IMG/VR virus record: IMGVR_UViG_3300045988_142703
Span: 1 to 16,210 of that record
Direction: 5' to 3' (one strand)
DNA: 16,210 bases
DNA from: a virus
Of the stretch, positions 1-16,210 are shown piece by piece. The translations under genes were made by a program, and so were the position numbers. The notes beneath the pieces are model-generated. The model had not been told where the DNA came from and searched no databases. It was given only the letters and a program-made list of their open reading frames with translations. The number at the start of each line of letters is the position of its first letter. Positions within the stretch are counted from its first letter, which is position 1.

Positions 1-90
1 GTGGTGCCCCTTTTTGCACTATTGTCAGCCCCAAAGCAAATAGGGCGATAACAACCATGGCTAACTTTCCAGAATCATATAATGATATAA

Positions 91-210
91 CCATATAATC
101 ATTGCATCATATAACGCCATAATCCTTATATCATTATGCCCTATAATCCTGTAATCATATATCCCTATAATTTCATAACCGCGTAACCATATAATCATTA
201 TGCAAAGTTC
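91..210. repeat. Five degenerate 24-bp tandem units inside the ITR, each with a cATAATc / TATAAT-like core. The mirror array is at 16001-16120.
   Basis: ATAAT cores begin at 95, 119, 143, 167 and 191, exactly 24 bp apart. The unit starts are ccatataatcatt, cgccataatcctt, ccctataatcctg, ccctataatttca and ccatataatcatt. A partial sixth core lies at 79. The stretch is AT-rich in a GC-rich genome. Confidence 0.75.
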
Positions 211-251
211 ACTACGGCTAATTAGTAACGGATTCCGCCTTTGTCTGTCTT

Positions 252-263
252 TGCGTGTATAAT
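252..263 (+). promoter_or_regulatory. Putative early promoter at the inner ITR edge, with a TATAAT -10 hexamer preceded directly by TG (tgcgTGTATAATg). The mirror copy at 15948-15959 on the - strand drives the right-end genes.
   Basis: A perfect TATAAT hexamer lies at 258-263 with TG adjacent upstream. The -35 is weak or absent (ttgtct at 241-246 has the wrong spacing). The predicted TSS at about 270 is roughly 90 nt upstream of the first ATG at 363. Because the element lies in the ITR, the same promoter points inward at both ends, toward 363.. on the left and toward 15877.. on the right. Confidence 0.45.
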
Positions 264-362
264 GTGAACCACGGGGCGGCGATGTGAACTCTCCCACCGC
301 TCGCCCCCGGCACCTTGAAAACAGAACAGAGAAGATCAGACCCTAAGGAAGGAGAACAGAAA

Positions 363-587
363 ATGAGTAAGTTAGGAATACCGTCGATCGAACAAACAGA
401 ATGTAACATTATCATTGGCGTTAAATGTACAGACAATGGCTATGATGTTGAAACGCAGATGGATGATGGTGAACAAATAACTGCTTTAACTTTGAAGGCA
501 AAGAAGCGGCTTAGTTTGGCGGACGCTGTTATTATCGCGATGCATGAATGCGAAATACGTCATATCAAGGCATCCAATTTGCTTTAG
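363..587 (+). CDS. Hypothetical early protein, 74 aa
   Basis: The ORF has an RBS (aaggaaggag) followed by ATG at 363 (MSKLGIPSIEQ...). It is the first gene after the left ITR. It has lower GC than the core genome. I recognise no motif. Confidence 0.5.
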   Translation: MSKLGIPSIEQTECNIIIGVKCTDNGYDVETQMDDGEQITALTLKAKKRLSLADAVIIAMHECEIRHIKASNLL

Positions 588-603
588 AAAGGATGTGAGA
601 AGA

Positions 604-738
604 ATGATTGAATGGATTGTTGCCAATCCCCAGGTTGTGGTGGGTGTGTCTATCTTTATGGGCATCATGATTATGTTGTTAGTGGTCTTGGGTGTTGTCG
701 CGCTCATTAAATACCTCGCAACGCCAATGAGTCGCTAA
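604..738 (+). CDS. Small single-pass membrane protein, about 44 aa, hypothetical
   Basis: The protein reads MIEWIVANPQVVVGVSIFMGIMIMLLVVLGVVALIKYLATPMSR, with one clear hydrophobic helix. aagga lies about 10 nt upstream of the ATG at 604. It overlaps the end of the previous gene in another frame. Confidence 0.4.
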   Translation: MIEWIVANPQVVVGVSIFMGIMIMLLVVLGVVALIKYLATPMSR

Positions 739-783
739 CATCGCACCATGCAGCCCAGACCACCGCCGAAAGGAGTTGCGTTC

Positions 784-1032
784 ATGCGCACTATCAAGAA
801 GAACATTACCACAACCGTCGCGCACGGTTTCGACATTGTGGACGGTGTGGCTGTTCCGGTTTCCTACACCGCTCTGGGTGACTACGCAAGCGCTGTTCGC
901 GTAACCGCCGCAGTGCGCAAGGATCACCCAAATTTTATGCTTGACACTTTTACGAAGGTCAAGCAAACTTACGAAATGCCGCTTGACACGTTTATGGCAC
1001 AAGCGGAAATCATCGACACGCTGGAAGCGTAG
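784..1032 (+). CDS. Hypothetical early protein, 82 aa. It is a possible DNA-binding protein by position only.
   Basis: An aaaggag RBS precedes the ATG at 784 (MRTIKKNITTT...). The longer 748 start has no RBS. There is no recognisable motif. Confidence 0.5.
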   Translation: MRTIKKNITTTVAHGFDIVDGVAVPVSYTALGDYASAVRVTAAVRKDHPNFMLDTFTKVKQTYEMPLDTFMAQAEIIDTLEA

Positions 1033-1046
1033 AAAGAGAGATCATC

Positions 1047-1490
1047 ATGGCAGAAGCGATCATCGAAGAGTATTCCACCGAGTTGGCCCCTGCAGCTCCG
1101 CAGACCATCACCGCATCCAACAACGCACAGGGCTATTTTTGCTCTATGCCCACCGAAACCCGCGAGGACGCTTTGGAGTTGGCCCGTGCCCTCACCAATG
1201 CGGACGAACTTGAAGCCATGATCGGCAAAACTCTTCACTTGCACGATTATGTTCTTCAGCCCGTCACGGTAGCCGATCAGCGCACGGGCGAGATTCGCAA
1301 TTGCACCCGAATTGTTCTCATGTGCGATGAAGGCAACTTCGGCACCATTTCCACGGGCGTTGAAACCTCCATGCGCAATCTGTGCACTGCAATGAAGAAC
1401 TTCCCCGCACCTTGGAACCCTCCCATTGAGGTTGTCCCGACCAAGCAGCAGGGCAAGAACGGTTTCAAGTTCACTCAGCTCGATTTCTAA
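1047..1490 (+). CDS. Hypothetical early protein, 147 aa. It may be an SSB-like replication accessory protein, judged only from its position upstream of the TP/DNAP pair.
   Basis: This is a clean 147-aa ORF with coding-like GC. It is immediately followed by an intrinsic terminator. The function assignment is speculative. Confidence 0.5.
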   Translation: MAEAIIEEYSTELAPAAPQTITASNNAQGYFCSMPTETREDALELARALTNADELEAMIGKTLHLHDYVLQPVTVADQRTGEIRNCTRIVLMCDEGNFGTISTGVETSMRNLCTAMKNFPAPWNPPIEVVPTKQQGKNGFKFTQLDF

Positions 1491-1517
1491 GCGTTACAAT
1501 ATGTGAGCGTTGCCGCC

Positions 1518-1547
1518 GAGGGCCGCGAATTGCGGCCCTCTTTGTTT
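1518..1547 (+). terminator. Rho-independent terminator or attenuator between the early gene block and the TP/DNAP genes
   Basis: The sequence is gagggccgc-gaatt-gcggccctc. It forms a perfect 9-bp GC-rich stem with a 5-nt loop, followed by tttgttt. Confidence 0.6.
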
Positions 1548-1561
1548 ATGGAGGTGGTTAG

Positions 1562-2320: not shown

Positions 2321-2321
2321 T

Positions 2322-4043
2322 ATGGACTACACCGCCGATTTCGAGACCACCACAGACCCGGACGATTGCCGGGTTTGGGCCTGGGCCGTGTGCACCATTG
2401 ACGCTGCCAACACAGTCACCATGGGCAACAGTATCGAGGGTTTTCTAGCTTTCTGCGCCACTAATCCCGGGTCTGATTTTTGGTTTCATAATCTGGCGTT
2501 CGATGGCGAATTCATTCTGAACCACTTATTAACAAGTGGTTGGCATCATGTGGAAAAATTCGACGGTTCGAAGCAAATCCGTTCGCTCATCTCGAAAATG
2601 GGGAAGTTCTATCAGCTTGAATTATGCTTTGAACGAAAAGGTAAAAAGCGCTCCAACAGTGTGAAGATCAAAGACAGTTTGAAAAAGCTCACTATGAGCG
2701 TTGAGGCAGTAGCCAAGGCGTTTAACCTGCCTATTGATAAACTGAGCATCGATTACGAGGCATACCGCGCACCTGGTCACGTGCTGACCGATGAGGAAAA
2801 GGCCTATATAACCAACGATGTTAAAATTATGGCCATGGCCCTGTATCAGGATTTTCAGAAAGGGCTCACGCGCCTTACGACTGGGGCCGACGCGCTGGCG
2901 AATTACCAGGATATTTTAGGCAAATACAACTGGCGCAAGCTGTATCCTGAAATGCCCGTTGAAATGGACGCCGCTATTCGCAAGGCATATAAAGGCGGGT
3001 GGACGTATGCCAATCCCCGCTACGCTGCCGACGAGGAGCATCCCGACAGGTGTGTGGGCGCTGGCAGTGTGTATGACAAAAACAGTATGTATCCGTCGGT
3101 GATGTACTCAAAGGCGTTGCCCGTCGGTATGCCCGTATACTTTCGCGGCGAGTATCCCGACGATGCGCACCACCCCTTATTTATCCAGTATTTGACCTGC
3201 TCGCTGAAACTCAAGTCAAACCATCTCCCCACATTGCAGGTCAAGGGCAACCCGTTTTACCGCGAAACCGAGTACATTACCGAAACCGACGGCTATGTAG
3301 ATTTGGCACTGACGAACATCGACCTTGAGTTAATGTACGAGCATTACCATGTCGACGTGCTGCAATTCAGCGGCGGTTACAAATTCCGGGCCATGCGCGG
3401 GATGTTCTGCGAGTACATTGACCACTGGATGCGTATTAAAGAGACCACCGAGGGGGGCCAGCGGTTGCGTGCCAAGCTGATGCTTAATGCGCTATACGGC
3501 AAGTTTGCCACCAACCCCGACGTTACGCCCAAGATACCTTATATCAAAGATGACGGCGCAACGGGCTATTACCTGGGCGATGAAGATACTCGCTCGCCCG
3601 TGTACACACCCATGGGTGCGTTCATCACCGCTTATGCGCGGCGTGACATTATAACCAACTGCCAGGCGATATATCCTCGCTTTCTGTACGCCGACACTGA
3701 CAGTATTCATTGCCTGGGCACTGAGCCTTTGGCCCTCGATGACGTGCACCCTACGCATCTCGGGGCGTGGAAGCATGAAAGCGATTTTGAAAAGGCAAAA
3801 TATCTACGGTCGAAAACCTACATGGAGCGGGTCACGCACGTCGGCAAAATGGTCGATGATGAATATAAAATGGTGGAGGTAGAGCCCTACAACGACATCA
3901 AATGTTGCGGATGCCCCGAGGCGTTGCGGGGGGCGATTACCTTTGACAATTTCAAGCGCGGCTTGTCACTTTACGGCAAGCTGCGGCCTAAACATGTTAG
4001 AGGCGGCATCGTGCTTGAGAAGACAGATTTTACGATTAGTTAG
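2322..4043 (+). CDS. Protein-primed family-B DNA polymerase (phi29 p2-like), 573 aa
   Basis: The protein aligns with phi29 DNAP from the N-terminus (MDYTADFETTTDPDDCRVWAW against ..YSCDFETTTKVEDCRVWAY). It has ExoI DFETTT, ExoII FHNLAFDGEFIL and ExoIII YITNDVKIM. It also has motif A DKNSMYPSVM, motif B KLMLNALYGKF, motif C YADTDSIH, KxY KYLRSKTY, and the C-terminus ...GGIVLEKTDFTIS (phi29 ...GGVVLVDDTFTIK). I take the ATG at 2322 as the true start rather than the ORF-track 2277. Confidence 0.96.
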   Translation: MDYTADFETTTDPDDCRVWAWAVCTIDAANTVTMGNSIEGFLAFCATNPGSDFWFHNLAFDGEFILNHLLTSGWHHVEKFDGSKQIRSLISKMGKFYQLELCFERKGKKRSNSVKIKDSLKKLTMSVEAVAKAFNLPIDKLSIDYEAYRAPGHVLTDEEKAYITNDVKIMAMALYQDFQKGLTRLTTGADALANYQDILGKYNWRKLYPEMPVEMDAAIRKAYKGGWTYANPRYAADEEHPDRCVGAGSVYDKNSMYPSVMYSKALPVGMPVYFRGEYPDDAHHPLFIQYLTCSLKLKSNHLPTLQVKGNPFYRETEYITETDGYVDLALTNIDLELMYEHYHVDVLQFSGGYKFRAMRGMFCEYIDHWMRIKETTEGGQRLRAKLMLNALYGKFATNPDVTPKIPYIKDDGATGYYLGDEDTRSPVYTPMGAFITAYARRDIITNCQAIYPRFLYADTDSIHCLGTEPLALDDVHPTHLGAWKHESDFEKAKYLRSKTYMERVTHVGKMVDDEYKMVEVEPYNDIKCCGCPEALRGAITFDNFKRGLSLYGKLRPKHVRGGIVLEKTDFTIS

Positions 4044-4052
4044 GAGTAAACT

Positions 4053-4310
4053 ATGGTCAGAAAGAAAGAACGTGGATGTACATTCAGCGCCGAGGAATTG
4101 GATTACCTCAATCAGCTGTCTGAACTGACCGAAAAAAGCGTGTCAGAGATTATACGCACTTCGGTACACAATCTTTGGGAGTTGACCGAGGCCATGAAAA
4201 CGGCTAACGGTGGCCTGCGGGCGCTCGATGTGGCCTACGAGTTCGCCAGCATTGACTTTAATTTCTCCAACGGTTATAATGCCGCCAACGGTGACAATCC
4301 TAGAGCGTAG
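4053..4310 (+). CDS. Small putative DNA-binding regulator, 85 aa, possibly with a ribbon-helix-helix fold
   Basis: It has a taggag RBS. The N-terminus is basic (MVRKKERG) and is followed by a pattern reminiscent of Arc/MetJ/CopG regulators (TFSAEELDYLNQLSELTEKSVSEIIRTSV). It sits at the early/late boundary directly upstream of a promoter-like element and a terminator. The fold assignment is inferred, not demonstrated. Confidence 0.4.
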   Translation: MVRKKERGCTFSAEELDYLNQLSELTEKSVSEIIRTSVHNLWELTEAMKTANGGLRALDVAYEFASIDFNFSNGYNAANGDNPRA

Positions 4311-4319
4311 CAGTATAAA
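4291..4319 (+). promoter_or_regulatory. Sigma-70-like promoter candidate: -35 GTGACA (4291-4296), 17-bp spacer, -10 TATAAA (4314-4319)
   Basis: GTGACA matches the -35 consensus at 5 of 6 positions and TATAAA matches the -10 consensus at 5 of 6, with ideal spacing. It overlaps the 3' end of the regulator gene. It faces the structured intergenic region and the late operon. Confidence 0.45.
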
Positions 4320-4325
4320 CCGCTG

Positions 4326-4442
4326 GCCCGTGGCACTGGTGAAACAGGGGTTAGCGGCCAGCCCGCCAAGCACCTGTCGCCTAGGGTAGCTGCCACTGTT
4401 GAACATTGCCCCCACTGCGGTTACCTGCGGTGGGGGCTTTTG
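4326..4442 (+). ncRNA. Candidate small structured RNA of about 115 nt. It is bounded by the promoter candidate and an intrinsic terminator, and it could be a pRNA-like packaging RNA or a regulatory leader.
   Basis: The 150-nt non-coding gap holds several elements: the inverted repeat gctggcc (4322-4328) / ggccagc (4356-4362), the direct imperfect repeat caggggttagcggcc / ctagggtagctgcc, and a terminal hairpin. The predicted TSS-to-terminator length is about 115 nt. A phage with gp16 and gp10 homologues would be expected to encode a pRNA. I did not see one at the left end. Confidence 0.3.
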
Positions 4443-4445
4443 CGC
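4409..4445 (+). terminator. Intrinsic terminator-like hairpin (cccccactgcgg-ttac-ctgcggtggggg, then cttttg) immediately before the late operon
   Basis: It has a 12-bp GC-rich stem with two G:U wobbles, a 4-nt loop and a short U-tract (4 U). The weak U-tract would allow partial read-through. Confidence 0.55.
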
Positions 4446-4460
4446 AAAGGAGCAAGAAAC

Positions 4461-4820
4461 ATGGATGAAGAGCTGAAGAATCTGCTCGAATGGCTCCGGA
4501 ACCGTTTGGACGATGGTGAGTACTCCACCGCCGAGACGTTTCTAACGGACGTATTCGGGAAGGCCGGGCGCTACGATGATGATATCTCGGTGCGCGACGC
4601 GAAAATCGAGCAGATCACGGGCGAGCGCGATACGGCGCTGGCCGATGTTAAGAATCTCAAGGCCCGCAATTACGATCTGCTTATGCAGATTCCGAGCGAC
4701 GGCGAAAATCAGGGCGACGGTACCGTGATTGAGTCCGTAGACGATGATGGCGAGGTTACTCACATTGATAACCTGTTCGTTGATGCCGACGAAAACGGCA
4801 ACCCGGTAAAGGAGGGTTAA
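4461..4820 (+). CDS. Putative head scaffolding protein, 119 aa
   Basis: The protein is acidic and predicted to be helical or coiled-coil (MDEELKNLLEWLRNRLDDGEY...). It lies immediately upstream of the major capsid gene, as phi29 gp7 does. An aaaggag RBS sits 8 nt upstream of the ATG at 4461. The ORF-track start at 4440 is a TTG. Confidence 0.55.
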   Translation: MDEELKNLLEWLRNRLDDGEYSTAETFLTDVFGKAGRYDDDISVRDAKIEQITGERDTALADVKNLKARNYDLLMQIPSDGENQGDGTVIESVDDDGEVTHIDNLFVDADENGNPVKEG

Positions 4821-4822
4821 TT

Positions 4823-6250
4823 ATGGCAACTAAGACAACCCGTGTGCTGAAAGCCGACAACGTATCTATTCTCTCGGCAATCTGGAACGATGCTTCAAGC
4901 GACTATCAGCGCCGTATTCCCCAGGCCGATCAGGCCGAGATTTCGGCGACGCTCAAGGCGCTGGACACGTACCCCATTCTTTGGAACGAGTCCGTGGGGG
5001 CTCTGGTCAACCGTATCGGCCTCATGGTCATGCAGACGAACACCTGGACGAATGGACTCAAATACCTCAAAAAGGGCATGATGGAGAATGGCGAGACCAT
5101 CGAAGAGGCGCGCACCAATCTTATTCAGGCACAGCGCTACGACCCCAATAAATGCTATGAGGATGTTTTCGCGTGCAACCCTCCCGAGACGGCGACCGCC
5201 TTCCACGAGATCAATCGCCAGGATTTCTACCCGCTCACTATCAACGAGCCGATTTTGCGCCGTGCCTTCTTGCGCAACGATGGTCTGCAGGAGTATTTGA
5301 CGGAGGTCATGAGCACCCCTTACACCTCTGATGAGTACGACGAGTACCTCATTATTAAAAATCTCTTCAAAGAGTACGAACAGGCTTACGGCTACTATAA
5401 GGTGCAGGTGCCCGCTGTTACCGATGTGCTCAACGGTCAGCAAGTGGAAGGTCAGGCCAAGGCCATTGCACAGGTGATTGACGAGTACAAGAGTCTCTTC
5501 AACTTCATGCGCACCGAATTCAACGGCCTGGGCTGGCCCACGTCCTCCAAGGGTTACGACATTGTGGTGTTTGCCACCCCGCGCCTGGCCTCCGTGTTGC
5601 GCGTTTACGTGCTGCCCTTTGCGTTTAAGGATAATTCCGCTATTAACGTGAACATTATCGAGATTGACGATTTCGGTATTCCCGGGTGCCAGGCCATCAT
5701 GGCCGATGAGCGTCATGTGATGTGCTACGACACTTATATGGCCTTCAAGGGCATTGAGAACCCGAAGGGCCGTCAGTGGAATTACTTCTGGCACCATGAC
5801 GGGATTTACTCGCTGTCTAAGTTCGTGAACGCCATCATGTTCACCACCGAGACGGGAACGGTGAACCCGGCTCAGCCGACCTACACCATCACCACCGTCA
5901 CCCCGGCGTTTGCCGCTGTGAATGGGGTTGTCCCGACGTTCGCGCCGAAGGGCACGGCTACGAAGCTCACGGCCACGGTGGAGGGCACCACTGCCCCTGA
6001 GGGTGCGGAGATTCCCCAGGCCGTCATGTGGTCGATTACCAAGAGCGCCGTACCTACGGCTCAGCACACCTATGTCGACTCCGACGGGTGGCTGCATGTC
6101 GCCGAGGACGAGGCCAACGCCACGTTGACTGTTACGGCCACCACACCCTACACCAACGTCCAGGGCGAAGCTGCCGTGTCGGGCGAGTTCGAAGCGGCCA
6201 TCGGTGCAGCTCCCACCGAGTCGAACGTTAACGACGAGGCAACGGAGTAG
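4823..6250 (+). CDS. Major capsid protein (phi29 gp8-like, HK97 fold) with a C-terminal Ig-like (BIG2-type) domain, 475 aa
   Basis: Matches to phi29 gp8 include VNRIGLMV against VDRIGLVV, TIEEA against TIEEI, and FHEINRQDFY against FHERNRQGFY. It also matches GRQWNYFWHHDGIYSLSKF against GLYWNYYYHVWQTLSVSRF. The T/V/A-rich C-terminal 120 aa resembles the surface Ig-like domain of gp8. Confidence 0.88.
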   Translation: MATKTTRVLKADNVSILSAIWNDASSDYQRRIPQADQAEISATLKALDTYPILWNESVGALVNRIGLMVMQTNTWTNGLKYLKKGMMENGETIEEARTNLIQAQRYDPNKCYEDVFACNPPETATAFHEINRQDFYPLTINEPILRRAFLRNDGLQEYLTEVMSTPYTSDEYDEYLIIKNLFKEYEQAYGYYKVQVPAVTDVLNGQQVEGQAKAIAQVIDEYKSLFNFMRTEFNGLGWPTSSKGYDIVVFATPRLASVLRVYVLPFAFKDNSAINVNIIEIDDFGIPGCQAIMADERHVMCYDTYMAFKGIENPKGRQWNYFWHHDGIYSLSKFVNAIMFTTETGTVNPAQPTYTITTVTPAFAAVNGVVPTFAPKGTATKLTATVEGTTAPEGAEIPQAVMWSITKSAVPTAQHTYVDSDGWLHVAEDEANATLTVTATTPYTNVQGEAAVSGEFEAAIGAAPTESNVNDEATE

Positions 6251-6253
6251 ACA

Positions 6254-8440: not shown

Positions 8441-9393
8441 TGGGTAAGAACAAGCCCAAGGCCGTTGTCTCCATACGCGACGGTGTGGCGACAATCAACA
8501 ACCAGCATCAGGCGCAATCGCGCAATGACGAGTACTATATGTTGTGGTATGACAACCTCTATCAGCTGGCAGCGGCCACGATCACCTGGGAGGGGATGCC
8601 CTCGGAAATTGATCGGCGCTTTGTGAACATGGCGCTGTTCGGTTCCGGTGTGGTGGTGTTCTATTGGGACAGTGATTACGACAAATATTTCTGTCTGCGT
8701 GCTGTTCCCAGCGGCACCATTGACATGTACAACAACCCAACCGCCTTCACCGCCTACGGGGCTGGCAATTACCATAAGCGGCTGAGTGCTGCCGAGTGCG
8801 TACCGATTTGGCTCAATTACAGGCGCGTCGGCATCCTGCCGATCATCGACCTATACGCGCGGCGGCTGGCAAACTACGACCGCACTATAGATGTCAACCT
8901 GGCCCAGCACAAAACGCCCGCCATCATCGAGTGCGACGAGCTGCAAAAGCTCAGCGTCGAAAACGCGCTCATGCAGGTTTACCAGGGCAAGCCCGTCGTG
9001 TTGGGCACCCCGGGGCTAACTTCGCTGTTGCAGGCCCATTACATCACCAATGAGGCCGCCTACATTGTAGATAAGCTCAACGATGACAAGAAAACATGCC
9101 TGCACGAGTTTCTCACGCTAATCGGCGTTGACAACTCGCCCGTTGACAAAATGGCGCGTGTGCAGTCTGCGGAGGTGGGCAGCAACAACGGCGAGATTGA
9201 AATGTTCCGCCTGGTGCGCTTCGACACCATCCGCGAGGGGTGCAAGGCCGTCAATCGCATGTACGGCACCACCGACGGCAACCGCCCTGCCGTGACGTTG
9301 TGGGCCGATTTCAATGGCGACTGGTCATCTGAGAACTGGGAGGCGCTAAACACATTGGAAGAGGTGAGCGACGATGACGGGCTACCCGATTAA
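8440..9393 (+). CDS. Head-tail connector / portal (upper collar, phi29 gp10-like), 317 aa
   Basis: YIVDKLNDDKK matches phi29 gp10 YVVDKLNAQKN. EFLTLIGV matches EMMTFLGI. Size and position fit. Its TAATG start overlaps the knob stop. Confidence 0.8.
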   Translation: MGKNKPKAVVSIRDGVATINNQHQAQSRNDEYYMLWYDNLYQLAAATITWEGMPSEIDRRFVNMALFGSGVVVFYWDSDYDKYFCLRAVPSGTIDMYNNPTAFTAYGAGNYHKRLSAAECVPIWLNYRRVGILPIIDLYARRLANYDRTIDVNLAQHKTPAIIECDELQKLSVENALMQVYQGKPVVLGTPGLTSLLQAHYITNEAAYIVDKLNDDKKTCLHEFLTLIGVDNSPVDKMARVQSAEVGSNNGEIEMFRLVRFDTIREGCKAVNRMYGTTDGNRPAVTLWADFNGDWSSENWEALNTLEEVSDDDGLPD

Positions 9394-10135
9394 CTACCAT
9401 GTGGGCGCGACCTTCACGGTGGAGCTGGGTTGTTTGCTAGAAAACGGTTTCGACCTGGGCATGAATTCGTATCCGATTTTCGATGACGATTACCGGGAAC
9501 AGCTCAACAACAAGATCATCGAGCATTTTTGGTTTCGCGAAATCGGCCAGGAAACGCCCCGGCTTTTCAAGATGTTGCTCAATCGTACCATGAACGAGAT
9601 CATGCCGTATTACAACGAGTTGTACAAAAGTACGCTTTTGGATTACAATCCGCTGGCGAACGTGGATGTCACCACGACGGGCAATCGCGACATTGCGAGG
9701 GCCGAAGATCGCACCACCGATCGAACGGACACCTATGCCACCAACCGCAGCGAGTCGGCGCAATCGTCCAGCGGTTCAAACACGGCCAGCACGGGGCGCA
9801 CCGTCAACAGCATGACCCCGCAGATGCAGCTCGCGGGCAATGAGGATTACGCATCAAGTCTGGTGGACGTGTCCAGCAACGCCGATACCAACGGCACCAC
9901 GCAGAGCAGCGCCAGCAGCGGAGACAGCGGCCAGACAGACGTTAACGAGTTGGCGAAGATGAACGCGACGGATACCGAGAACTACGTCAACCACGTTGCC
10001 GGATTGCAGGGCATTACTGCCGCAAACGCGATTATGCAGATGCGGGACGCTATTATAAACGTGGACATGATGGTAATATATGCGTTGGAACCCCTGTTTA
10101 TGCAGGTGTGGAATACTGGCATGGGATTGTATTAG
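9374..10135 (+). CDS. Putative lower collar protein (gp11-like), 253 aa
   Basis: It sits between the connector and the tail-fibre genes. It has a long Ser/Thr/Gly/Asn-rich central segment, consistent with the extended beta-hairpin tube region of Picovirinae lower collar proteins. It overlaps the connector gene by 20 nt. Confidence 0.5.
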   Translation: MTGYPINYHVGATFTVELGCLLENGFDLGMNSYPIFDDDYREQLNNKIIEHFWFREIGQETPRLFKMLLNRTMNEIMPYYNELYKSTLLDYNPLANVDVTTTGNRDIARAEDRTTDRTDTYATNRSESAQSSSGSNTASTGRTVNSMTPQMQLAGNEDYASSLVDVSSNADTNGTTQSSASSGDSGQTDVNELAKMNATDTENYVNHVAGLQGITAANAIMQMRDAIINVDMMVIYALEPLFMQVWNTGMGLY

Positions 10136-10145
10136 GAGGTGTAAA

Positions 10146-10694
10146 ATGGGATGTTACACAGGACTGTTCGGGTACGACGGCATTATGACCCCCTACGGCC
10201 CCAATCAGGTGTCGTGGCCGTTGGTCTACGATCAAAGCGTTTCAATCGTGCAGCAAATCGCATACATTATGGGTGCCGTCAACACGCTGCACGACGAGCA
10301 GGGCACCTGGGCCACGAAAACCGATCTTGACGACCTCGCGGACGCTTTCGAGGCCGACCAGGAGCAGCAGACAACGGCACTGAAAAAATATGCCGATGAT
10401 GCAGATGCGAAACTGTATGACAAGATTGTGCAGCTCATCGGCGAAATGCAGAAAAGCGCGGCCATCTGGGATGTTACCCAGGGCAAATTTACCGACAGCG
10501 TTACCGCTATGCGCAATCTGTACACGTGGACGAGTGTCCACGCCATCACCGTTGCCGAGCTGGCAGCGTCCACCGTCGCGCCCACCGTGGCAGACCTCGC
10601 GGCGCAAAGCCTCAATGTGCGAGGGCTGGCGACGTGGAGCATGGAGCTTAAAGAGGGCTGGGCAGAGCCAGCCGGAATCAGACAGGAGGCTTAG
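10146..10694 (+). CDS. Hypothetical protein, 182 aa, probably structural (tail or appendage-associated) given its context
   Basis: An aggagg RBS is followed by ATG at 10146 (MGCYTGLFGYDG...). It lies within the late structural operon. It is acidic with an Ala-rich C-terminus. I recognise no motif. Confidence 0.45.
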   Translation: MGCYTGLFGYDGIMTPYGPNQVSWPLVYDQSVSIVQQIAYIMGAVNTLHDEQGTWATKTDLDDLADAFEADQEQQTTALKKYADDADAKLYDKIVQLIGEMQKSAAIWDVTQGKFTDSVTAMRNLYTWTSVHAITVAELAASTVAPTVADLAAQSLNVRGLATWSMELKEGWAEPAGIRQEA

Positions 10695-10696
10695 AC

Positions 10697-11659
10697 ATGA
10701 CAACTTTCACGCCGAATTTCGACCTGGATTTGTACGAGGGCACGGACAAACCCGACCTTGCCGACCAGTACGCCGCCGCCATGCAAAAGATCGATACGGC
10801 CTTGCAGGCGGCTTTGGAGGCGCGGGCCGAATTGCAGAACAGCATTGGGACGCTCAACATTAATTTGACGGCCACCAACAAGGAGGTTTCTGACAATACG
10901 TCTGCAATCGCCGCCAATTCTGCGAGCATTGCCAGCCTGGACAGTTCCGTGGCTGACAATACGTCTGCAATCGCCGCCAATTCTGCGAGCATTGCCAGCC
11001 TGGACAGTTCCGTGGCATCGCTTAAAACCGAGGTGGACAAGAACACTCCGTTGGTCGAGGCCCACGTTAATTACTTTGCCGACCTCGGCGTGACCGATGA
11101 CCAGAGCGCCCAGGACTTGCACGAGCAAATTGACCAGAGTTTTCAGGGTGTTATGAGCAATACGCAGAGCATTACCGCATTGGAGCGGCAGCTGGGAGAG
11201 ACATACGATTTCGATGTGTCCGATGCTGTCAAGCCGCCGTGGCAAGATCGTTATAATTACTTTTACGTCGCAGTTAACAAACACAAGAACATACTGAAAT
11301 TCTACGGCATGATGATAGCGCAAACCGAATGGACAGCCACGAAACAAGCTGTACCCGGAGTGGTTATCGATGGAGAACAGTACTACGGAATCAAGCTTGA
11401 TTACGACACTGGGCTGAGACTTGAAAAGGGGCGTTATATTAACAACACGGGCATTTATTGGCGAGGAGGAGTCTTCTCGGCCACAAACGTCGCCACTCTT
11501 CCGTTCTCAATCGGCACCGATGGTTATATTTATGTGATGACGAACAATGTACCCGGTGAAATTACTTTGCCCGAAAACAGCGTTGGTATGCTTTTCCAGT
11601 GCCCTGTTTACCTTGGCGCGGGCGAGTGGGGTGTAGCACCCGAGCAACCAGGTGTGTAG
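10697..11659 (+). CDS. Putative tail fibre / receptor-binding protein with an N-terminal coiled-coil stalk carrying a tandem 21-aa duplication, 320 aa
   Basis: The N-terminal 130 aa are predicted helical with heptad-like periodicity (ALQAALEARAELQNSIGTLNINL...). They include two exact copies of DNTSAIAANSASIASLDSSVA. The C-terminal 150 aa are rich in Gly, Tyr and Asn, typical of a receptor-binding head. The gene lies between the collar and wall-hydrolase genes. Confidence 0.5.
   Translation: MTTFTPNFDLDLYEGTDKPDLADQYAAAMQKIDTALQAALEARAELQNSIGTLNINLTATNKEVSDNTSAIAANSASIASLDSSVADNTSAIAANSASIASLDSSVASLKTEVDKNTPLVEAHVNYFADLGVTDDQSAQDLHEQIDQSFQGVMSNTQSITALERQLGETYDFDVSDAVKPPWQDRYNYFYVAVNKHKNILKFYGMMIAQTEWTATKQAVPGVVIDGEQYYGIKLDYDTGLRLEKGRYINNTGIYWRGGVFSATNVATLPFSIGTDGYIYVMTNNVPGEITLPENSVGMLFQCPVYLGAGEWGVAPEQPGV
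10891..11016 (+). repeat. Perfect 63-bp tandem duplication (two copies, 62/63 identical) inside the tail-fibre gene
   Basis: The unit gacaatacgtctgcaatcgccgccaattctgcgagcattgccagcctggacagttccgtggct lies at 10891-10953. A second copy lies at 10954-11016, ending ..gtggca instead of ..gtggct. The duplication is in frame (21 aa, three heptads). Confidence 0.9.
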
Positions 11660-11661
11660 GT

Positions 11662-12930
11662 ATGGCCACCCCTGCACAAATAATCGAGTACAGCAAGTAC
11701 TGCATTGCCGCCGTGGAGTCTGATTTCACGTGGAATTCAGTTTACTGGGTGGATGCCATCACGTTGGGGATGTGGCAGTACTGGGGGCCCGAGGCAGGCG
11801 ACCATTTGCATCGAATGAAAGACCAGACCCCCGACGATTACGCGCAACTGTCGGCGAGCCTCCGCGCAAACGTGGAGGCTCACCCCGCTTCCTCGTCGTG
11901 GTGGGAGGGGTACCACTGGACACAGGCCGAGGGCAATTCTTGGAAGGCCGTCGCCAAGGATTCCGCGCAGAACCACGCCTTGCAGGAGCAGCAGATAAAC
12001 GAGCAACAGCAAACACAGCTCGATTACGTCATTGCTCAGTACGGTGCGAGCCTGGACAACCCCAAAGTTGCCGTTTACGTGCTCAACATGTACCACCAGA
12101 GCCCCGCCGCCTGCGGGCGCGTGTGCCGCTCCATAGGCGCGGGCACGGCATCGTTGGCGACGTGCCACACAACCGCCCTCAACGACAGGGTGCTGGGCAA
12201 CTATGCCACCCGTTACAACCGCGTAAAGGCGCTTTTAGATGCGTGGGACGGCACCAGTGCCCCGCCTGATTACGGTCAGGTGGGGCAGGTGACTGAAGGC
12301 GGCGATTCGCCGACCATCCAGGCCAAGCCATTGCAGTTGTCCTACATCATCCAAAGCGGAGATACTCTTTTGCTCTACGGCGCGGAAGGGTCGGGGTTTG
12401 AGAACGGAGTGCCCTTTTTCGCCGCCGGGGCTCAAAGATGGGTACCATCAAACAACCCGACCAACGTTGGCACCGATTCGGATTATTCCGACTCGGGCAC
12501 AGGCACGGGCAGCACCGCCGCCGCGCAGATCGTGGCCCTCATGGAATCATGGGAAAACCAATTCAGTTATTCGCAGTCTGGCGACCGACTGCACCCGGAT
12601 AAATCCGGTTATGGGGATTGCTCATCGGTGGTTTGGCGGGCCTATCAGCTCATCACAGGTAAGGACGTGGGCACCTGGACGGGCGAGCAGCGCACCAAGG
12701 GCCGAATGATCGCCAAGGGAGGGCCCGGCGATGCTTTTCCCGTATCGTCGGCCCAACCTGCGGATCTGCTCCAGGTGACGCACACCAACGGGGTTCAGCA
12801 TGTGGAAATGTACATGGGCGGTAACAGGCTTATGGGACACGGGTCGGCGCCCGGGCCCCATTGGAACAACTACAGCGCGACGGAGTATTGCGCCCGCCAA
12901 TCGGAATGGCAGCTTCGGAGGTACCTCTAA
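11662..12930 (+). CDS. Tail-associated peptidoglycan hydrolase (functional analogue of phi29 gp13), 422 aa. The N-terminal domain is lytic-transglycosylase (SLT)-like and the C-terminal domain is an NlpC/P60-like cysteine peptidase.
   Basis: The N-terminus has AVESDFTWNSVYWVDAITLGMWQYWG, an SLT-like pattern (ES...GLMQ with a catalytic Glu). The C-terminus has SGYGDCSSVVWRAY (Cys motif) and ADLLQVTHTNGVQHVEMYMGG (His motif), as in NlpC/P60. It lies downstream of the fibre gene and upstream of the packaging ATPase. Confidence 0.7.
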   Translation: MATPAQIIEYSKYCIAAVESDFTWNSVYWVDAITLGMWQYWGPEAGDHLHRMKDQTPDDYAQLSASLRANVEAHPASSSWWEGYHWTQAEGNSWKAVAKDSAQNHALQEQQINEQQQTQLDYVIAQYGASLDNPKVAVYVLNMYHQSPAACGRVCRSIGAGTASLATCHTTALNDRVLGNYATRYNRVKALLDAWDGTSAPPDYGQVGQVTEGGDSPTIQAKPLQLSYIIQSGDTLLLYGAEGSGFENGVPFFAAGAQRWVPSNNPTNVGTDSDYSDSGTGTGSTAAAQIVALMESWENQFSYSQSGDRLHPDKSGYGDCSSVVWRAYQLITGKDVGTWTGEQRTKGRMIAKGGPGDAFPVSSAQPADLLQVTHTNGVQHVEMYMGGNRLMGHGSAPGPHWNNYSATEYCARQSEWQLRRYL

Positions 12931-13985
12931 TGGCCGTGACGCTCGCAACGGATAACGTGCATTGGTCTAGCCATGACCTGCTCACCCGGGGCGGTATGTG
13001 GAATTACGCCATTGGGGGGCGCGGTGTGGGAAAAACCTATGACGCGAAGCTGAAACGCACGAAGCATTTTCTTAAAACTGGGAAGCAGTTTATCTATATG
13101 CGACGTTACGAAACCGAGTTCGCCGACAAGCAGGAGCTTTTCCAGGACGTGAAAGAGGAGTTTCCGAACCACGAAATCAAGGTGGAGGGCATGAGGGCCT
13201 ACATTCGGAAGAACACCGAAGTGGACGAGGACGGCAACGAGACCAAGCACCCCTGGCGGCTCTTCTGCTTTCTGGTGGCACTTTCTACAACTGTGGGCAA
13301 AAAATCGGTGCCCTACCCGGATGTTGATTACATTGTGTTCGATGAGTTTATCATTGACAAAGGTTTCATTCGCTATATCAGCAATGAGGTACGTATATTT
13401 CTGGAATTTTACAACACGGTGGACAGATTCACCGACCGTGTGCGGGTGCTGTTCCTCGCCAACGCCATTTCGATTGTCAACCCCTATTTTGTCTATTTCG
13501 GCATCAAACCGCGCAAGGGCCAACGCTTTTGCTCGATGATGGAGGGTTATCATGTGTGCGAAATGATAGAGTCAGAGGCCTACGTGGAGCGCGTCACGCA
13601 AACGAAATTCGGGCGCATGATCGCCAACACAGAGTATTTCGATTACGCCGTGGCCAACCGCTTCACCAACGATGAGAGCGAGTTCATAGCACCGAAATCG
13701 CCCCGCGCCGTGTACCAGTACAGTATAATATTCGACGGCCAGAAAATGGCCGTGTGGTACGATGCCGCCGACAACCGTTATTATGTTTGCGACCGTATCC
13801 CGCCAGACAAAGCGGCATATGTTGTGACAAAGCACGATCAGTCACCTGACATGATGATGGTTGATCGCGCGTCGCCATTGCTCAAGGGTCTTAAACGACT
13901 GTACATGATGGGAGGTGTCTATTTTACCAATGCGGCCATGCAGTCGGCCTTTTTCGATCTGCTCGACTATTTGAATCTACGTTAG
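12930..13985 (+). CDS. DNA packaging ATPase (phi29 gp16-like), 351 aa
   Basis: NYAIGGRGVGKTYDAKL...GKQFIYMRRYETEFADK...EFPNHEIKVEG aligns with phi29 gp16 NFVIGARGIGKSYAMKV...GEQFIYVRRYKPELAKV...EFPDHELVVKG. Walker A is GGRGVGKT and Walker B is YIVFDEF. A GGAGG RBS precedes the ATG at 12930, which forms a TAATG overlap. Confidence 0.92.
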   Translation: MAVTLATDNVHWSSHDLLTRGGMWNYAIGGRGVGKTYDAKLKRTKHFLKTGKQFIYMRRYETEFADKQELFQDVKEEFPNHEIKVEGMRAYIRKNTEVDEDGNETKHPWRLFCFLVALSTTVGKKSVPYPDVDYIVFDEFIIDKGFIRYISNEVRIFLEFYNTVDRFTDRVRVLFLANAISIVNPYFVYFGIKPRKGQRFCSMMEGYHVCEMIESEAYVERVTQTKFGRMIANTEYFDYAVANRFTNDESEFIAPKSPRAVYQYSIIFDGQKMAVWYDAADNRYYVCDRIPPDKAAYVVTKHDQSPDMMMVDRASPLLKGLKRLYMMGGVYFTNAAMQSAFFDLLDYLNLR

Positions 13986-13993
13986 GAGTTTAT

Positions 13994-14395
13994 ATGTATC
14001 TGCTCACTATGGTAGAGATTTGGGCGCTAGTGTTCACATGCGTCTTTATTCTCTTCGACGTGCTCACGGGCGTTGCCGTGGGATTCCTCAAAACGGGGCT
14101 TTCGTCGGCCAAGTCCCACGAGGGGGTGCAACATAAAGTAGGATTGATTTTGGCAATGGTGCTGGGTGTTCTGCTGCACATCTGCCAGCAATTCTTCGAT
14201 TTGGGTATTCACATCCCCATTCTCGTGTTCATCTGCCTCTATATTACCTTTACCGAGATCATTTCAATTTGCGAGAACATCGGGGAATTGTCGCCCCAAC
14301 TCAAAGACTCGCGTTTCATGAAACTTTTCCAATTTGCCGTCGACGGCAAGGACAATTTGGCCGATGATGGCGAGGAGGCGCACCATGGGGCTTAA
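13994..14395 (+). CDS. Holin, 133 aa, with three predicted TM helices
   Basis: Three hydrophobic segments are present (IWALVFTCVFILFDVLTGVAV, VGLILAMVLGVLLHI, IPILVFICLYITFTEIISI). The tail is charged. It lies immediately upstream of the endolysin and overlaps it. It has a taggag RBS. Confidence 0.7.
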   Translation: MYLLTMVEIWALVFTCVFILFDVLTGVAVGFLKTGLSSAKSHEGVQHKVGLILAMVLGVLLHICQQFFDLGIHIPILVFICLYITFTEIISICENIGELSPQLKDSRFMKLFQFAVDGKDNLADDGEEAHHGA

Positions 14396-15269
14396 CGGCA
14401 TCGACATTTCGGGCTATCAAAAGGGTATCGACCTGGGGAAGCTGAACGGGGTTGATTTCGTCATCATCAAGGCCACGCAGGGGCGCACCTACCTTAACCC
14501 GGCGTTCAAAGCCCAGATCACCCAGGCCCTCGACCTGGGTAAGCTAGTGGGCGTGTACCACTACGTTTCCGGCATCGGGGCGAAGGATGAGGCCCAGTGG
14601 TTCTATGACAACATCAAGCCCTATTTAGGCCAGGTTGTTATCTGCATCGACTGGGAGGAGATTCAGAATTCGGCTTGGGGAAATCTCAACTACCTCGACC
14701 AGCTCATGACCCAGATTAACGGGCTCACGGGCGTTCCTGCGCTCATCTATGCGAGCAAGGCTGTATTTCCCTGGGATTTGGCGAAAAAGCACAATGCCGG
14801 GGCCTGGGTTGCCCAGTACGCCAACGACAATGCGACGGGGTTTCAGGCCGTTCCCTGGAATGAGGGGGCCTATACGTGCGCCATTCGCCAGTACACCGCA
14901 AACGGCTATCTGGACGGCTGGGGCGGGGCGCTCGACCTCGACAAGGCTTATATGACGCGCGAGGCGTGGGCGAAATACGCCAACCCTGGCGGCACAGTAT
15001 CGCCCGCACCTAAGCCCGTCGCCCCGTCAGCGCCAAAGCTGGGCGGGCAGTTCAAAATTCTGGTGGATGGGCTCAACGTGCGCAGCAAGCCCAGTCTGAG
15101 CGCGTCCGTAGTGGCCCACTACAACCGAGGCGAAAAGGTTTGGTTGGATTCCACGGTGACAAAGGCCAATGGGTGGTACTGGGGCACCTACATCGGCGCG
15201 AGCGGCAAACGGCGCTACATTGCCGTGCAGAGCGTGGACGGCAAGCACGTTTACGCTAAGAGGGCGTGA
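14385..15269 (+). CDS. Endolysin, 294 aa: N-terminal GH25 muramidase plus C-terminal SH3b-type cell-wall-binding domain
   Basis: The GH25 pattern is GIDISGYQKGIDLGKLNGVDFVIIKATQGRTYLNPAFKAQ...GVYHY...DWEE, as in Cpl-1. A Pro/Ala linker (PAPKPVAPSAPK) follows. The C-terminus (KILVDGLNVRSKPS...GEKVW...ANGWYWGTYIG...RYIAVQ) looks like SH3b. A gaggagg RBS sits 6 nt before the ATG at 14385. The start overlaps the last three holin codons. Confidence 0.85.
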   Translation: MGLNGIDISGYQKGIDLGKLNGVDFVIIKATQGRTYLNPAFKAQITQALDLGKLVGVYHYVSGIGAKDEAQWFYDNIKPYLGQVVICIDWEEIQNSAWGNLNYLDQLMTQINGLTGVPALIYASKAVFPWDLAKKHNAGAWVAQYANDNATGFQAVPWNEGAYTCAIRQYTANGYLDGWGGALDLDKAYMTREAWAKYANPGGTVSPAPKPVAPSAPKLGGQFKILVDGLNVRSKPSLSASVVAHYNRGEKVWLDSTVTKANGWYWGTYIGASGKRRYIAVQSVDGKHVYAKRA

Positions 15270-15328
15270 CATGTGCTGTTTGTTCTCATTACAGCGATAT
15301 CCGCGCTGGCAGTGATGAGATAATTAAC

Positions 15329-15360
15329 AAAGCCCCTCGATTGAGGGGCTTTATTAGTTG
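15329..15360. terminator. Bidirectional intrinsic terminator between the convergent late operon (+) and the right-end genes (-)
   Basis: The sequence is aaagcccctc-gatt-gaggggcttt. It forms a perfect stem flanked by tttattagttgtt on the + strand and, on the - strand, by tttgtt. It therefore works in both directions. Confidence 0.65.
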
Positions 15361-15425
15361 TTGGCAAGGGTGATGAGCAGATCGTAATAGTCGCTATCTC
15401 GGTGCGCTGCAGCCTTCAAAGCGAT

Positions 15426-15689
15426 TTACAAAACGTGGTAGTGCTCTTCATCACCTACCAAAACTAACAACTCAGCTAGCCCGTTACGGTCATTTCGAGC
15501 ACTTATGTTCTGCACATACATATCGCCGTGAGTGCGAAGAAGATTGAGCATTTCGGGGTTCGCACACTCGGAAATAGTTGTTTCAAAGCCATCAAATATA
15601 TGTTCAAGACTGTATACAGGGAAATTGCGCACTACAACGATCAATTTAGTATTAGTGTTCATCACCTCCACGAATTCGCGCAACTTCAT
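15426..15689 (-). CDS. Hypothetical right-end early protein, 87 aa
   Basis: An aaggagg RBS lies 7 nt upstream of the ATG at 15689. It is translationally coupled to the upstream ORF. It ends just before the bidirectional terminator. There is no recognisable motif. Confidence 0.5.
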   Translation of the reverse strand: MKLREFVEVMNTNTKLIVVVRNFPVYSLEHIFDGFETTISECANPEMLNLLRTHGDMYVQNISARNDRNGLAELLVLVGDEEHYHVL

Positions 15690-15877
15690 TTCACAGCCTC
15701 CTTGAATTCCTTCGGTGTGATGGTGTAAACAGTTGTTGCTTCGCAGTCAACCACATACGCGGTCTTCTCTAGTAGGCCACAGAGAACGATTGCAAGCTGG
15801 CAAGCGTCCATGTAGTAGAGATCAATAAACGGCCCGATTTCAGGATCTTCAATGATTACGGTGTGCACGGTTACCAC
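15686..15877 (-). CDS. Hypothetical right-end early protein, about 60-63 aa, acidic. The start is a GTG at 15877 or 15868.
   Basis: It is transcribed inward from the right ITR promoter. gaaggag lies upstream. It overlaps the downstream gene by ATGA. It has lower GC than the core genome. There is no recognisable motif. Confidence 0.45.
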   Translation of the reverse strand: MVTVHTVIIEDPEIGPFIDLYYMDACQLAIVLCGLLEKTAYVVDCEATTVYTITPKEFKEAVK

Positions 15878-15903
15878 ACTCCTTCATTCTTCATAATCGC
15901 ACC

Positions 15904-16210
15904 GGGGCGAGCGGTGGGAGAGTCTACATCGCCGCCCCGTGGTTCACATTATACACGCAAAGACAGACAAAGGCGGAATCCGTTACTAATTAGCCGTAGT
16001 GAACTTTGCATAATGATTATATGGTTACGCGGTTATGAAATTATAGGGATATATGATTACAGGATTATAGGGCATAATGATATAAGGATTATGGCGTTAT
16101 ATGATGCAATGATTATATGGTTATATCATTATATGATTCTGGAAAGTTAGCCATGGTTGTTATCGCCCTATTTGCTTTGGGGCTGACAATAGTGCAAAAA
16201 GGGGCACCAC
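15904..16210. repeat. Right inverted terminal repeat (ITR), 307 bp
   Basis: This is the mirror copy of 1-307. The ORF-track 'proteins' at 61-297(-) and 15863-16150(+) have the same sequence because they are the same DNA read in inverted orientation. Confidence 0.9.

Follow-up and report, generated by a model that had tools for sequence, protein, structure and literature searches.

We describe here a 16,210-nucleotide (nt) stretch of viral DNA, the whole of IMG/VR record IMGVR_UViG_3300045988_142703 (the window), and a small structured RNA encoded between its early and late genes. With considerable confidence we read the window as all, or all but a few terminal bases, of the linear double-stranded DNA genome of a virulent phi29-like podophage that is organised like phages Cp-1 and Av-1 and whose host would most likely be a gut member of the Actinomycetota. 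The RNA (4287-4441) is, on balance, probably the first member of a second family of phage packaging RNAs (pRNAs), a family supported by covariation and encoded between the early and late modules of Cp-1/Av-1-type phages. As a genome the window is a further Cp-1/Av-1-type phi29-like phage from a clade without a cultured member; this is no surprise, though it is of use to taxonomists and in cataloguing host ranges. Of greater importance is the small RNA.

According to a 2024 review, phi29 and related Bacillus phages are the only phages currently known to depend on a pRNA for packaging (PMC11476376). Earlier proposals of a pRNA in Cp-1 and Av-1 are uncorroborated, the proposed Cp-1 pRNA not being reliably found by a covariance model based on Bacillus phages (PMC6266182), and we found no paper describing the RNA of the window. 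If our reading is true, gp16-type packaging motors in general include an RNA component, which is then not confined to Bacillus phages, and the loops by which the RNA pairs with itself have evolved together, independently, in many lineages. An RNA of pRNA layout in distant phi29-like phages bears on whether RNA is ancestral to this motor, and also on the natural variation of the ring-forming modules of pRNA that are used in RNA nanotechnology.

The small RNA and its conservation

The best match to a sigma-70-type promoter in the window (TTGACT-17-TATAAT, 11 of 12 positions) lies on the plus strand at 4252-4280. It is followed on the same strand by the pRNA-like core of the small RNA (4287-4400), which comprises helix A, helix C, a 5' bulge, hairpin E and a D region, and by an intrinsic terminator (4408-4441) composed of a 13-bp GC-rich stem and TTTT. 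The RNA (approximately 4287-4441) lies between the early and late genes, at a non-coding gap of 130 nt. Its predicted folding was better than that of all 200 shuffled sequences (z = -3.5), and every close relative possessed an RNA unit at the equivalent place with its own -35 and -10 boxes and its own terminator.

A covariance model built from four sequences detected three more divergent copies, with E-values of 2e-7 to 2e-5, and nothing convincing elsewhere. A second model gave marginal matches in the clade whose DNA polymerases (DNAPs) are 56-62% identical to that of the window; each of these matches lay on the coding strand and at the syntenic site. In an alignment of six sequences 95% of the cells were paired and 16 of the 25 base pairs showed compensatory changes. 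When the alignment was extended to 13 sequences the paired fraction was 89.8%, against 63% in shuffles and 35-46% with slid partners, and compensatory changes were seen in 18 of 25 pairs; all six pairs of the central helix C and all seven of helix A2 covaried. These alignments were fitted to the covariance model, a procedure which favours the structure, but the margin is nonetheless large. A loose two-block DNA pattern for the RNA was also run over IMG/VR. It returned about 120 unrelated contigs, and the resulting loci (L095-L174) were ignored as noise.

Layout compared with the phi29 pRNA

In the RNA of the window, helix A closes the structure and is interrupted by a 3-nt bulge; helix C follows, then six nucleotides (GUGGCA) that bulge from the 5' side, and then hairpin E, whose loop reads GUGAAA. 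The D region contained the sequence GCCA, which is complementary to the 5' bulge. The order of these elements equals that of the phi29 pRNA in Rfam: a bulged helix pairing the ends, helix C, a 5' bulge, a hairpin, the return strand of helix C, a second hairpin and the closing strand. Across the relatives the 5'-side bulge measured 6-8 nt and the short hairpin carried a 6-nt loop (GUGAAA and variants). Counted along the RNA of the window, the bulge bases UGGC are at positions 45-48 and their complement GCCA at 79-82. In the phi29 pRNA, bulge nucleotides 45-48 pair with loop nucleotides 82-85 of a neighbouring molecule to build a ring, positions which can also be read off the Rfam alignment.

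The complementarity between bulge and D region appears to be kept in most lineages while both partners change. Compared with UGGC/GCCA in the window, the pairs were CGGC/GCCG in L090, UCGC/GCGA in L003, GGCA/UGCC in L089, UGCUA/UAGCA in L215, UGAUA/UAUCA in L002, ACGC/GCGU in L229 and UGCCA/UGGUA in L001; in two further relatives, L092 and L218, the complementarity extended over only 3 bp. Cognate bulges and D regions were more complementary than permuted pairings (p 0.013) and than bulges combined with shuffled D regions (p 0.003), in a test that was deliberately crude, the D hairpin having been set by hand or by minimum-free-energy folding.

Likeness and difference can be set out as follows. 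The phi29 pRNA (RF00044) and the RNA of the window each have a core of approximately 115-120 nt, closed by a long helix A that is formed by the two ends and contains a 3-nt bulge, and each has a promoter and terminator of its own. A 4-5-nt complementarity between bulge and D loop also seems to be common to both. The bulge of helix A, however, is on the 3' strand in the window and on the 5' strand in phi29, and helix E has 3 bp instead of 4. Further differences from the phi29 pRNA concern the junction, an extra hairpin present in some lineages and the genomic position.

Structured RNAs in cultured phages

Similar units were found in phages that have been grown in culture. With the covariance models a copy was located beside the DNAP module of Hungatella phage CH17P1 (L008 13686-13791, E approximately 0.1). 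Phages Fairywren (L374 4083-4190), Mendel, Voltaire and BadAztec1 possessed a structured RNA of approximately 100-120 nt with a terminator in the syntenic gap; further coordinates of RNAs from cultured phages are L382 4934-5105, L383 4769-4930 and L385 12680-12857 (minus strand). The cultured phages with a syntenic RNA are phages of Curtobacterium, Arthrobacter, Glutamicibacter, Bifidobacterium and Hungatella. The covariance models detected none of the RNAs of Fairywren, Mendel, Voltaire and BadAztec1, and a third model missed the syntenic RNAs of Fairywren, Av-1, Cp-1 and Mendel; these RNAs are linked to the window by position and fold only. Because structured RNAs are present at the syntenic site in cultured phages, a packaging role is directly testable.

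Av-1 carries an annotated 'packaging RNA' at its right end (L375 16295-16402). We considered whether this was of the same type as the RNA of the window and rejected the idea, its fold having no pRNA-like element. In the syntenic gap of Av-1 (L375 4474-4611) a promoter is annotated, but no RNA was seen there other than a short hairpin with its terminator.

Packaging RNA or late-operon leader

It looks as though the RNA of the window works like a pRNA while standing outside RF00044. The same locus could be explained differently, namely as a cis-acting leader or attenuator of the late operon, with 4252-4280 as the late promoter. RNA and terminator would then set the extent of read-through into the scaffold, capsid and tail genes, perhaps under the control of the 85-amino-acid (aa) regulator-like protein encoded just upstream. 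We regard this explanation, the main rival, as a good deal less probable than a packaging RNA; several observations favour it.

The T-run of the terminator ends at 4441 and is followed directly by the ribosome-binding site (RBS) and the start, at 4461, of the first late gene, leaving no room for a promoter. Late transcription must therefore read through the RNA unit, and the spacing between terminator and late gene is equally tight in the relatives. The open reading frame (ORF) for the 85-aa protein (4053-4310, plus strand), a possible small transcription regulator, gave a weak match to a repressor family (phrog_876, 'transcriptional repressor', E 0.0055). Moreover, the pRNA model does not recognise the RNA: RF00044 gave no match in the whole window at E<=1 and none in 4270-4450 (181 nt) at E<=10, whereas the phi29 pRNA, as positive control, scored 145 bits against a gathering threshold of 100. 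By that test the RNA is not a member of RF00044. Finally, the D hairpin is poorly defined in the window itself.

On the other hand, the succession of bulged closing helix, helix C, 5' bulge, hairpin E with a 6-nt loop and D region is that of the phi29 pRNA. Four to five complementary bases in bulge and D region seem to be kept while both change between lineages, and an attenuator needs no such pairing. Every genome with the RNA also encodes a gp16-type ATPase and a phi29-type connector. We therefore prefer a packaging RNA, and note that the packaging and leader roles are not mutually exclusive and could coexist in one molecule. An antiterminator pairing between the 5' end of the RNA and one arm of the terminator was also considered. 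It was seen in the window and was not conserved in the relatives.

The position of the 85-aa ORF, which lies upstream of the small-RNA promoter and overlaps it, was conserved in the relatives. The gene at this position in Arthrobacter phage Mendel is annotated as ribbon-helix-helix, and the two products have no pairwise similarity.

Gene content and relation to known phages

ORFs were called in all six frames and assigned to families by Pfam and PHROG scans. All large genes are on the plus strand, and two small ORFs at the right end are on the minus strand. A phi29-type capsid, connector, lower collar, tail knob and gp16 ATPase were all present within 16,210 bp (PF25622, PF05352, phrog_3225/5472, PF20934 and PF05894, respectively). 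For a phage of this kind the set of genes is a full one, and it takes up the room between the terminal repeats.

The replication module consists of a phi29-type single-stranded DNA-binding protein (SSB; 1047-1490, PF17427 E 1.3e-6, phrog_6243 E 3e-15), a candidate terminal protein (TP) of 252 aa that is predicted to be all-helical (1562-2320) and a protein-primed family B DNAP (2322-4043, PF03175 E 2e-66), all on the plus strand. The late module begins behind the small RNA with a gene for a 119-aa acidic protein (4461-4820, plus strand; phrog_23080, a family of unknown function). This protein is a scaffold candidate by position: the gene is directly upstream of the capsid gene, and the scaffolding gene of Cp-1 occupies the equivalent position. 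There follow, on the same strand, genes for a major capsid protein (MCP) of the phi29 type (4823-6250, PF25622 E 1e-86), a gp9-like tail knob protein (6254-8440, PF20934 E 1e-19, phrog_2248 E 6e-92), a gp10-like head-tail connector or upper collar (8440-9393, PF05352 E 1e-41) and a gp11-like lower collar (9374-10135, phrog_3225 E 4e-39, phrog_5472 E 1e-23). The gp16-type DNA encapsidation ATPase (12930-13985, PF05894 E 5e-64) is encoded directly upstream of a holin (13994-14395, PF05105 E 7.5e-13) and an endolysin (14385-15269) composed of a GH25 muramidase and a C-terminal SH3-like wall-binding domain, again all on the plus strand. The endolysin is 100% identical to JGI/ENA protein P0123, for which the longest contig measures exactly 16,210 nt.

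The window thus has the long inverted terminal repeats (ITRs), the single main coding strand, the ATPase-holin-lysin block and the leftward right-end ORFs of the Cp-1/Av-1 type. A reading of the same DNA made beforehand from the sequence alone had listed DNAP, MCP, knob, connector and ATPase, running in one direction with the ATPase ahead of holin and lysin, and had likened the architecture to Cp-1 and Av-1 in preference to phi29. The ORF and family scans agree with the former statement, and the annotated records of Av-1 and Cp-1, together with the lengths of their ITRs, uphold the latter.

Streptococcus phage Cp-1 (Cepunavirus Cp1; NC_001825) is linear, as the window very probably is, and has long ITRs, annotated as 236 bp. 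Its genes follow the same order: small early ORFs, TP (a candidate in the window), DNAP, small ORFs, scaffold, capsid, connector, lower collar and tail genes, then the gp16 ATPase, holin, lysin and small leftward ORFs at the right end. Early promoters of Cp-1 are inside or adjoining the ITRs and read inward. The late promoters of Cp-1 have been mapped after an early terminator, while in the window a promoter, a structured RNA and a terminator stand directly before the late genes. The two genomes have no nucleotide similarity, their DNAPs are less than 46% identical, and the GC content is 38.8% in Cp-1 and 53.7% in the window.

The order of genes in Actinomyces phage Av-1 (Dybvigvirus Av1; NC_009643) is almost gene for gene that of the window. 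It runs through three small ORFs, ssb, TP, pol, a small ORF, a promoter-bearing gap, an ORF, head, tail, connector, lower collar, two tail genes, ATPase, holins and lysin to the leftward ORFs. The ITR of Av-1 is approximately 210 bp long, its terminus (TGTGTCTGTGCCCCCCTTTG) resembles that of the window (GTGGTGCCCCTTTTTG) and its host is an actinobacterium. Identity to the window in the MCP was 32%.

Bacillus phage phi29 (Salasvirus phi29) has a polymerase of the same kind, 45% identical from end to end, and family membership is likewise shared with the window by its SSB, capsid, tail knob, connector, lower collar and gp16 ATPase; the order SSB-TP-DNAP is also common to both, with the candidate TP of the window in the middle. 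Unlike the window, phi29 has ITRs of 6 bp, its early genes at either end are on the opposite strand and its pRNA gene is at the left end, whereas the window has ITRs of 307 bp, one main direction of transcription and the pRNA-like gene between the early and late modules.

The closest cultured relatives differed with the protein compared. By DNAP (46%) it was Hungatella phage CH17P1 (OP172758), which has an ITR of 65 bp and, unlike the window, carries its structural genes on the opposite strand. By ATPase and MCP (33-36%) it was Curtobacterium phages, for example Fairywren (PQ868971), which has an ITR of approximately 93 bp and the same gene order as the window. Protein identities of CH17P1 and Fairywren to the window are low, and nucleotide similarity is absent.

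Probable genome ends

Inverted copies of 307 nt with 99% complementarity were found at 1-307 and 15904-16210 in a repeat search of the window. Base-by-base comparison placed the only differences at positions 286/287, which read GA in the left arm and AG in the right, and identity stops at position 308. The sequence-only reading, which had described ITRs of 307 bp with one dinucleotide swap and a window bounded precisely by the repeat ends, was accurate on both points. The second-longest inverted pair in the window is 36 nt long with 75% complementarity, and a chance origin of a 307-nt match with two mismatches, sited at the exact contig ends, is therefore excluded. The window is the entire source record, which contains no flanking sequence.

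The left ITR (1-307) begins with GTGGTGCCCCTTTTTG and presumably holds a replication origin and the early-promoter region; the right ITR (15904-16210) mirrors it except at the positions pairing with 286/287. Close to the terminus there is a C-tract followed by a T-tract, a feature common to the termini of Av-1 and Cp-1, and within the first 16 bases the window and the Av-1 end have the motif GTGCCCC...TTT in common. Seen individually, the ends of the window (1-16 and 16195-16210) show a GTG GTG reiteration and then CCCC TTTTT, the Av-1 end shows a TGTGT reiteration and GTGCCCCCCTTT, and the Cp-1 end a C-tract and then a T-tract. The C-tract/T-tract pattern could be a shared origin motif. The GTG GTG reiteration would fit slide-back or jump-back initiation, assuming that the assembly reaches the last base.

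Inside the ITR there is an AT-rich array of approximately 16 tandem 8-bp units, AAYCATAT (73-200, mirrored at 16011-16138). It has a GC content of 29% and contains five inward-pointing TATAAT boxes, a sixth box being located at 258. The genome has nine TATAAT hexamers on the plus strand, of which six are in the left ITR, all pointing inward. Autocorrelation of the array was 0.55, 0.49, 0.58 and 0.51 at lags of 8, 16, 24 and 32, compared with a background of approximately 0.25, and these values were reached by none of 5000 shuffles. No comparable array was present in the ends of Av-1, Cp-1, Fairywren and CH17P1, where Cp-1 gave at most a weak signal at lag 24. Protein p6 of phi29 binds the ends of the phi29 genome with a periodicity of 24 bp. 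The array may be a stack of early promoters, a set of sites for a protein that binds the ends, or both.

Two relatives reconstructed from Logan, with DNAPs 84% and 65% identical to that of the window and lengths of 15,822 nt (L006+L378) and 16,006 nt (L092+L379), possessed inverted repeats of exactly 30 nt at their ends. Both are k=31 assemblies, and a terminal repeat of k-1, such as arises where the unique sequence of either end meets a single inverted repeat common to both, implies that they stop at the inner edge of their own ITRs. A contig from a different sample terminates at the same base. In the 15,822-nt relative the shared 30 nt contain an RBS-like GGAG and an ATG start codon, and the first genes at both ends would therefore have a common translation start. 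The shared 30 nt of the 16,006-nt relative carry only RBS-like AAGGAGG/GGAAAGGA motifs.

That the window is a complete replicon is very probable in view of its full gene set, the gene order and long ITRs of Av-1 and Cp-1, the 30-nt end repeats of the relatives and the terminus motif. Against this it has to be said that an exact 28-mer from the ITR end was unmatched in IMG/VR and the JGI metagenomes, and that blastn of the ITR gave no match among all fetched loci. The termini are therefore not independently replicated. A metagenome scan with the lysin yielded one fragment of 1.3 kb, which falls short of the genome end.

The ITR could in principle be an artefact of assembly, one end having been copied inverted onto the other or foreign sequence having been added, and the lack of a second contig with the same ITR would agree with this. 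Such artefacts do occur. Two related IMG/VR contigs, 3300045988_017072 (L226+L016) and _089195 (L221+L014), have terminal 'inverted repeats' of 100 and 118 nt which contain Nextera adapter (TCGTCGGCAGCGTCAGATGTGTATAAGAG and GTCTCGTGGGCTCGGAGATGTGTATA), and for contigs of this sort completeness calls based on ITRs can be artefacts. The termini of the window, however, are unlike those adapter sequences. A repeat of 307 nt exceeds the k-mer sizes normal for short-read assemblers, which speaks against an artefact, and the two-base difference shows that the arms were assembled separately. In addition, the k=31 contigs of the relatives end in inverted repeats of k-1, as expected if real ITRs lie beyond, and cultured phages of the same gene order have ITRs of more than 200 bp, with the GTGCCCC...TTT motif common to the window and the Av-1 terminus. 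We consider an artefact very improbable.

Slightly more improbable still is a linear plasmid-prophage, or an integrated element bounded by ITRs, that encodes a protein-primed polymerase and was captured without its flanks: linear plasmids and tectivirus-like plasmid-prophages can likewise have ITRs and a protein-primed polymerase, and phi29-like entries deposited as plasmids have been listed (PMC11476376), but the Pfam and PHROG scans found no integrase, partition, repressor or plasmid-maintenance family among the ORFs of the window (apart from the weak match to phrog_876), the contig ends exactly at the repeat ends, nearly the full coding capacity is given to replication, virion, packaging and lysis genes in the lytic Cp-1/Av-1 order, and there was no close copy of the lysin in 185,579 species genomes.

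Candidate terminal protein and proposed replication cycle

The DNAP matched the phi29 DNAP (1XHX) from end to end, with E 1e-154 over residues 9-574 in phmmer, and the TPR2 stretch NPDVT..PVYTPMG was conserved between the two. The 252-aa ORF at 1562-2320 lies between SSB and DNAP, as does the terminal protein gene in phi29, Cp-1, Av-1 and Fairywren. With a profile of six syntenic homologues, hhalign related it to the 'DNA terminal protein' of Fairywren (82% probability, E 1e-5). An AlphaFold model based on three sequences was all-helical, and among 350,542 PDB chains its top Foldseek match was the phi29 terminal protein (2ex3_B). These results make the ORF a good candidate for the terminal protein.

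Other results for this ORF weigh the opposite way. No direct sequence match was found in the phage records, in PDB sequences or in a PDB profile search; the hhalign match of the profile to the phi29 terminal protein was weak (5.5% probability) and there was none to that of Cp-1 (0.5%). The AlphaFold model is of modest confidence (pLDDT, the predicted local distance difference test score, 64.6), and the Foldseek match to 2ex3_B is weak (E 0.44, TM-scores 0.24-0.28).

From these elements the following cycle may be proposed. The terminal protein, the 252-aa product of 1562-2320, would prime replication at both ends within the ITRs, and the repeated GTG at the terminus (GTGGTG) would make a jump-back or slide-back step possible. 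The polymerase would copy the genome by strand displacement with the assistance of SSB. Promoters in or near the ITRs would read inward into the small early genes at both ends, and the rightward early transcript would continue through the replication genes. The promoter at 4252-4280 would give rise to an RNA of approximately 115-155 nt ending at the terminator, with read-through feeding the late genes. This RNA might act like the phi29 pRNA, forming a ring on the connector by bulge-to-loop pairing between copies, and the ring would dock the gp16 ATPase, which would package DNA with the terminal protein attached. Holin and GH25 lysin would finally release the progeny.

Sampling, GC content and host

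The window was described beforehand as a poorly sampled lineage in a high-GC background. With respect to cultured isolates the first part of this description holds. The whole window had no megablast match among 50,697 phage records, and exact lookup of the capsid and lysin products in a contig index found nothing. The best identities in cultured phages were 46% for DNAP (CH17P1 and Arthrobacter and Bacillus phages), 36% for MCP (Curtobacterium, Glutamicibacter and Arthrobacter phages and Av-1) and 36% for ATPase (Curtobacterium phages). For metagenomes the description does not hold: DNAP relatives included one at 99% identity and another at 84%, with several more at 65-76% and dozens around 60%, and many IMG/VR contigs of 15-18 kb are syntenic relatives. 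Nor is the background one of high GC. The GC content of the window is a moderate 53.7%, within the range of 22.8-65.9% reported in a 2024 survey of more than 2000 phi29-like entries, whose hosts include Bifidobacterium, Eggerthella and Actinomyces (PMC11476376).

A high-GC Gram-positive host, which had also been suggested, is plausible from the similarities of the lysin to Eggerthellaceae, Collinsella and Bifidobacterium. In an alignment-based scan the catalytic domain of the lysin was 59% identical to sequences from Adlercreutzia/Eggerthellaceae and 51-56% to Collinsella, followed by Actinomyces, Olsenella and Bifidobacterium; one Oscillibacter genome also reached 59%. Full-length lysin matches among phages were confined to Bifidobacterium phage lysins (37-39%), and a single-protein scan of the 185,579 species genomes with the lysin detected no close copy. 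With moderate confidence we propose that the host is a gut member of the Actinomycetota, with the reservation that the proposal draws on a single protein at 59% identity or less.

Further genes

The left end carries, on the plus strand, three small early ORFs, of 74 aa (363-587; no known family), 44 aa (604-738; hydrophobic) and 82 aa (784-1032; no known family). Downstream of the lower collar gene, and likewise on the plus strand, are genes for a presumed structural protein of 182 aa that belongs to no known family (10146-10694), a coiled-coil protein of 320 aa which is a candidate fibre or appendage (10697-11659) and a tail-associated cell-wall hydrolase with a C-terminal NlpC/P60 domain (11662-12930, PF00877 E 6.5e-6, phrog_1015). 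At the right end a terminator hairpin (15329-15352) separates the lysin gene from the convergent leftward ORFs. These encode 87 aa (15426-15689, minus strand; no known family), with leftward ORFs at the equivalent place in Av-1 and Cp-1, and 63 aa (15686-15877, minus strand), the latter being the first gene met when reading inward from the right ITR. A search of the window for tRNA genes was negative.

The gene for the 320-aa coiled-coil protein contained a perfect in-frame tandem duplication of 63 bp (21 aa) at 10890-11015. The homologue in the relative with 84% DNAP identity has 276 aa; the length of this protein thus varies among close relatives. Relative L005, with a DNAP 99% identical to that of the window, differed in the small genes at its left end (L005 1-450, compared with 308-740 of the window), which indicates that the early left module is exchanged between near-identical phages.

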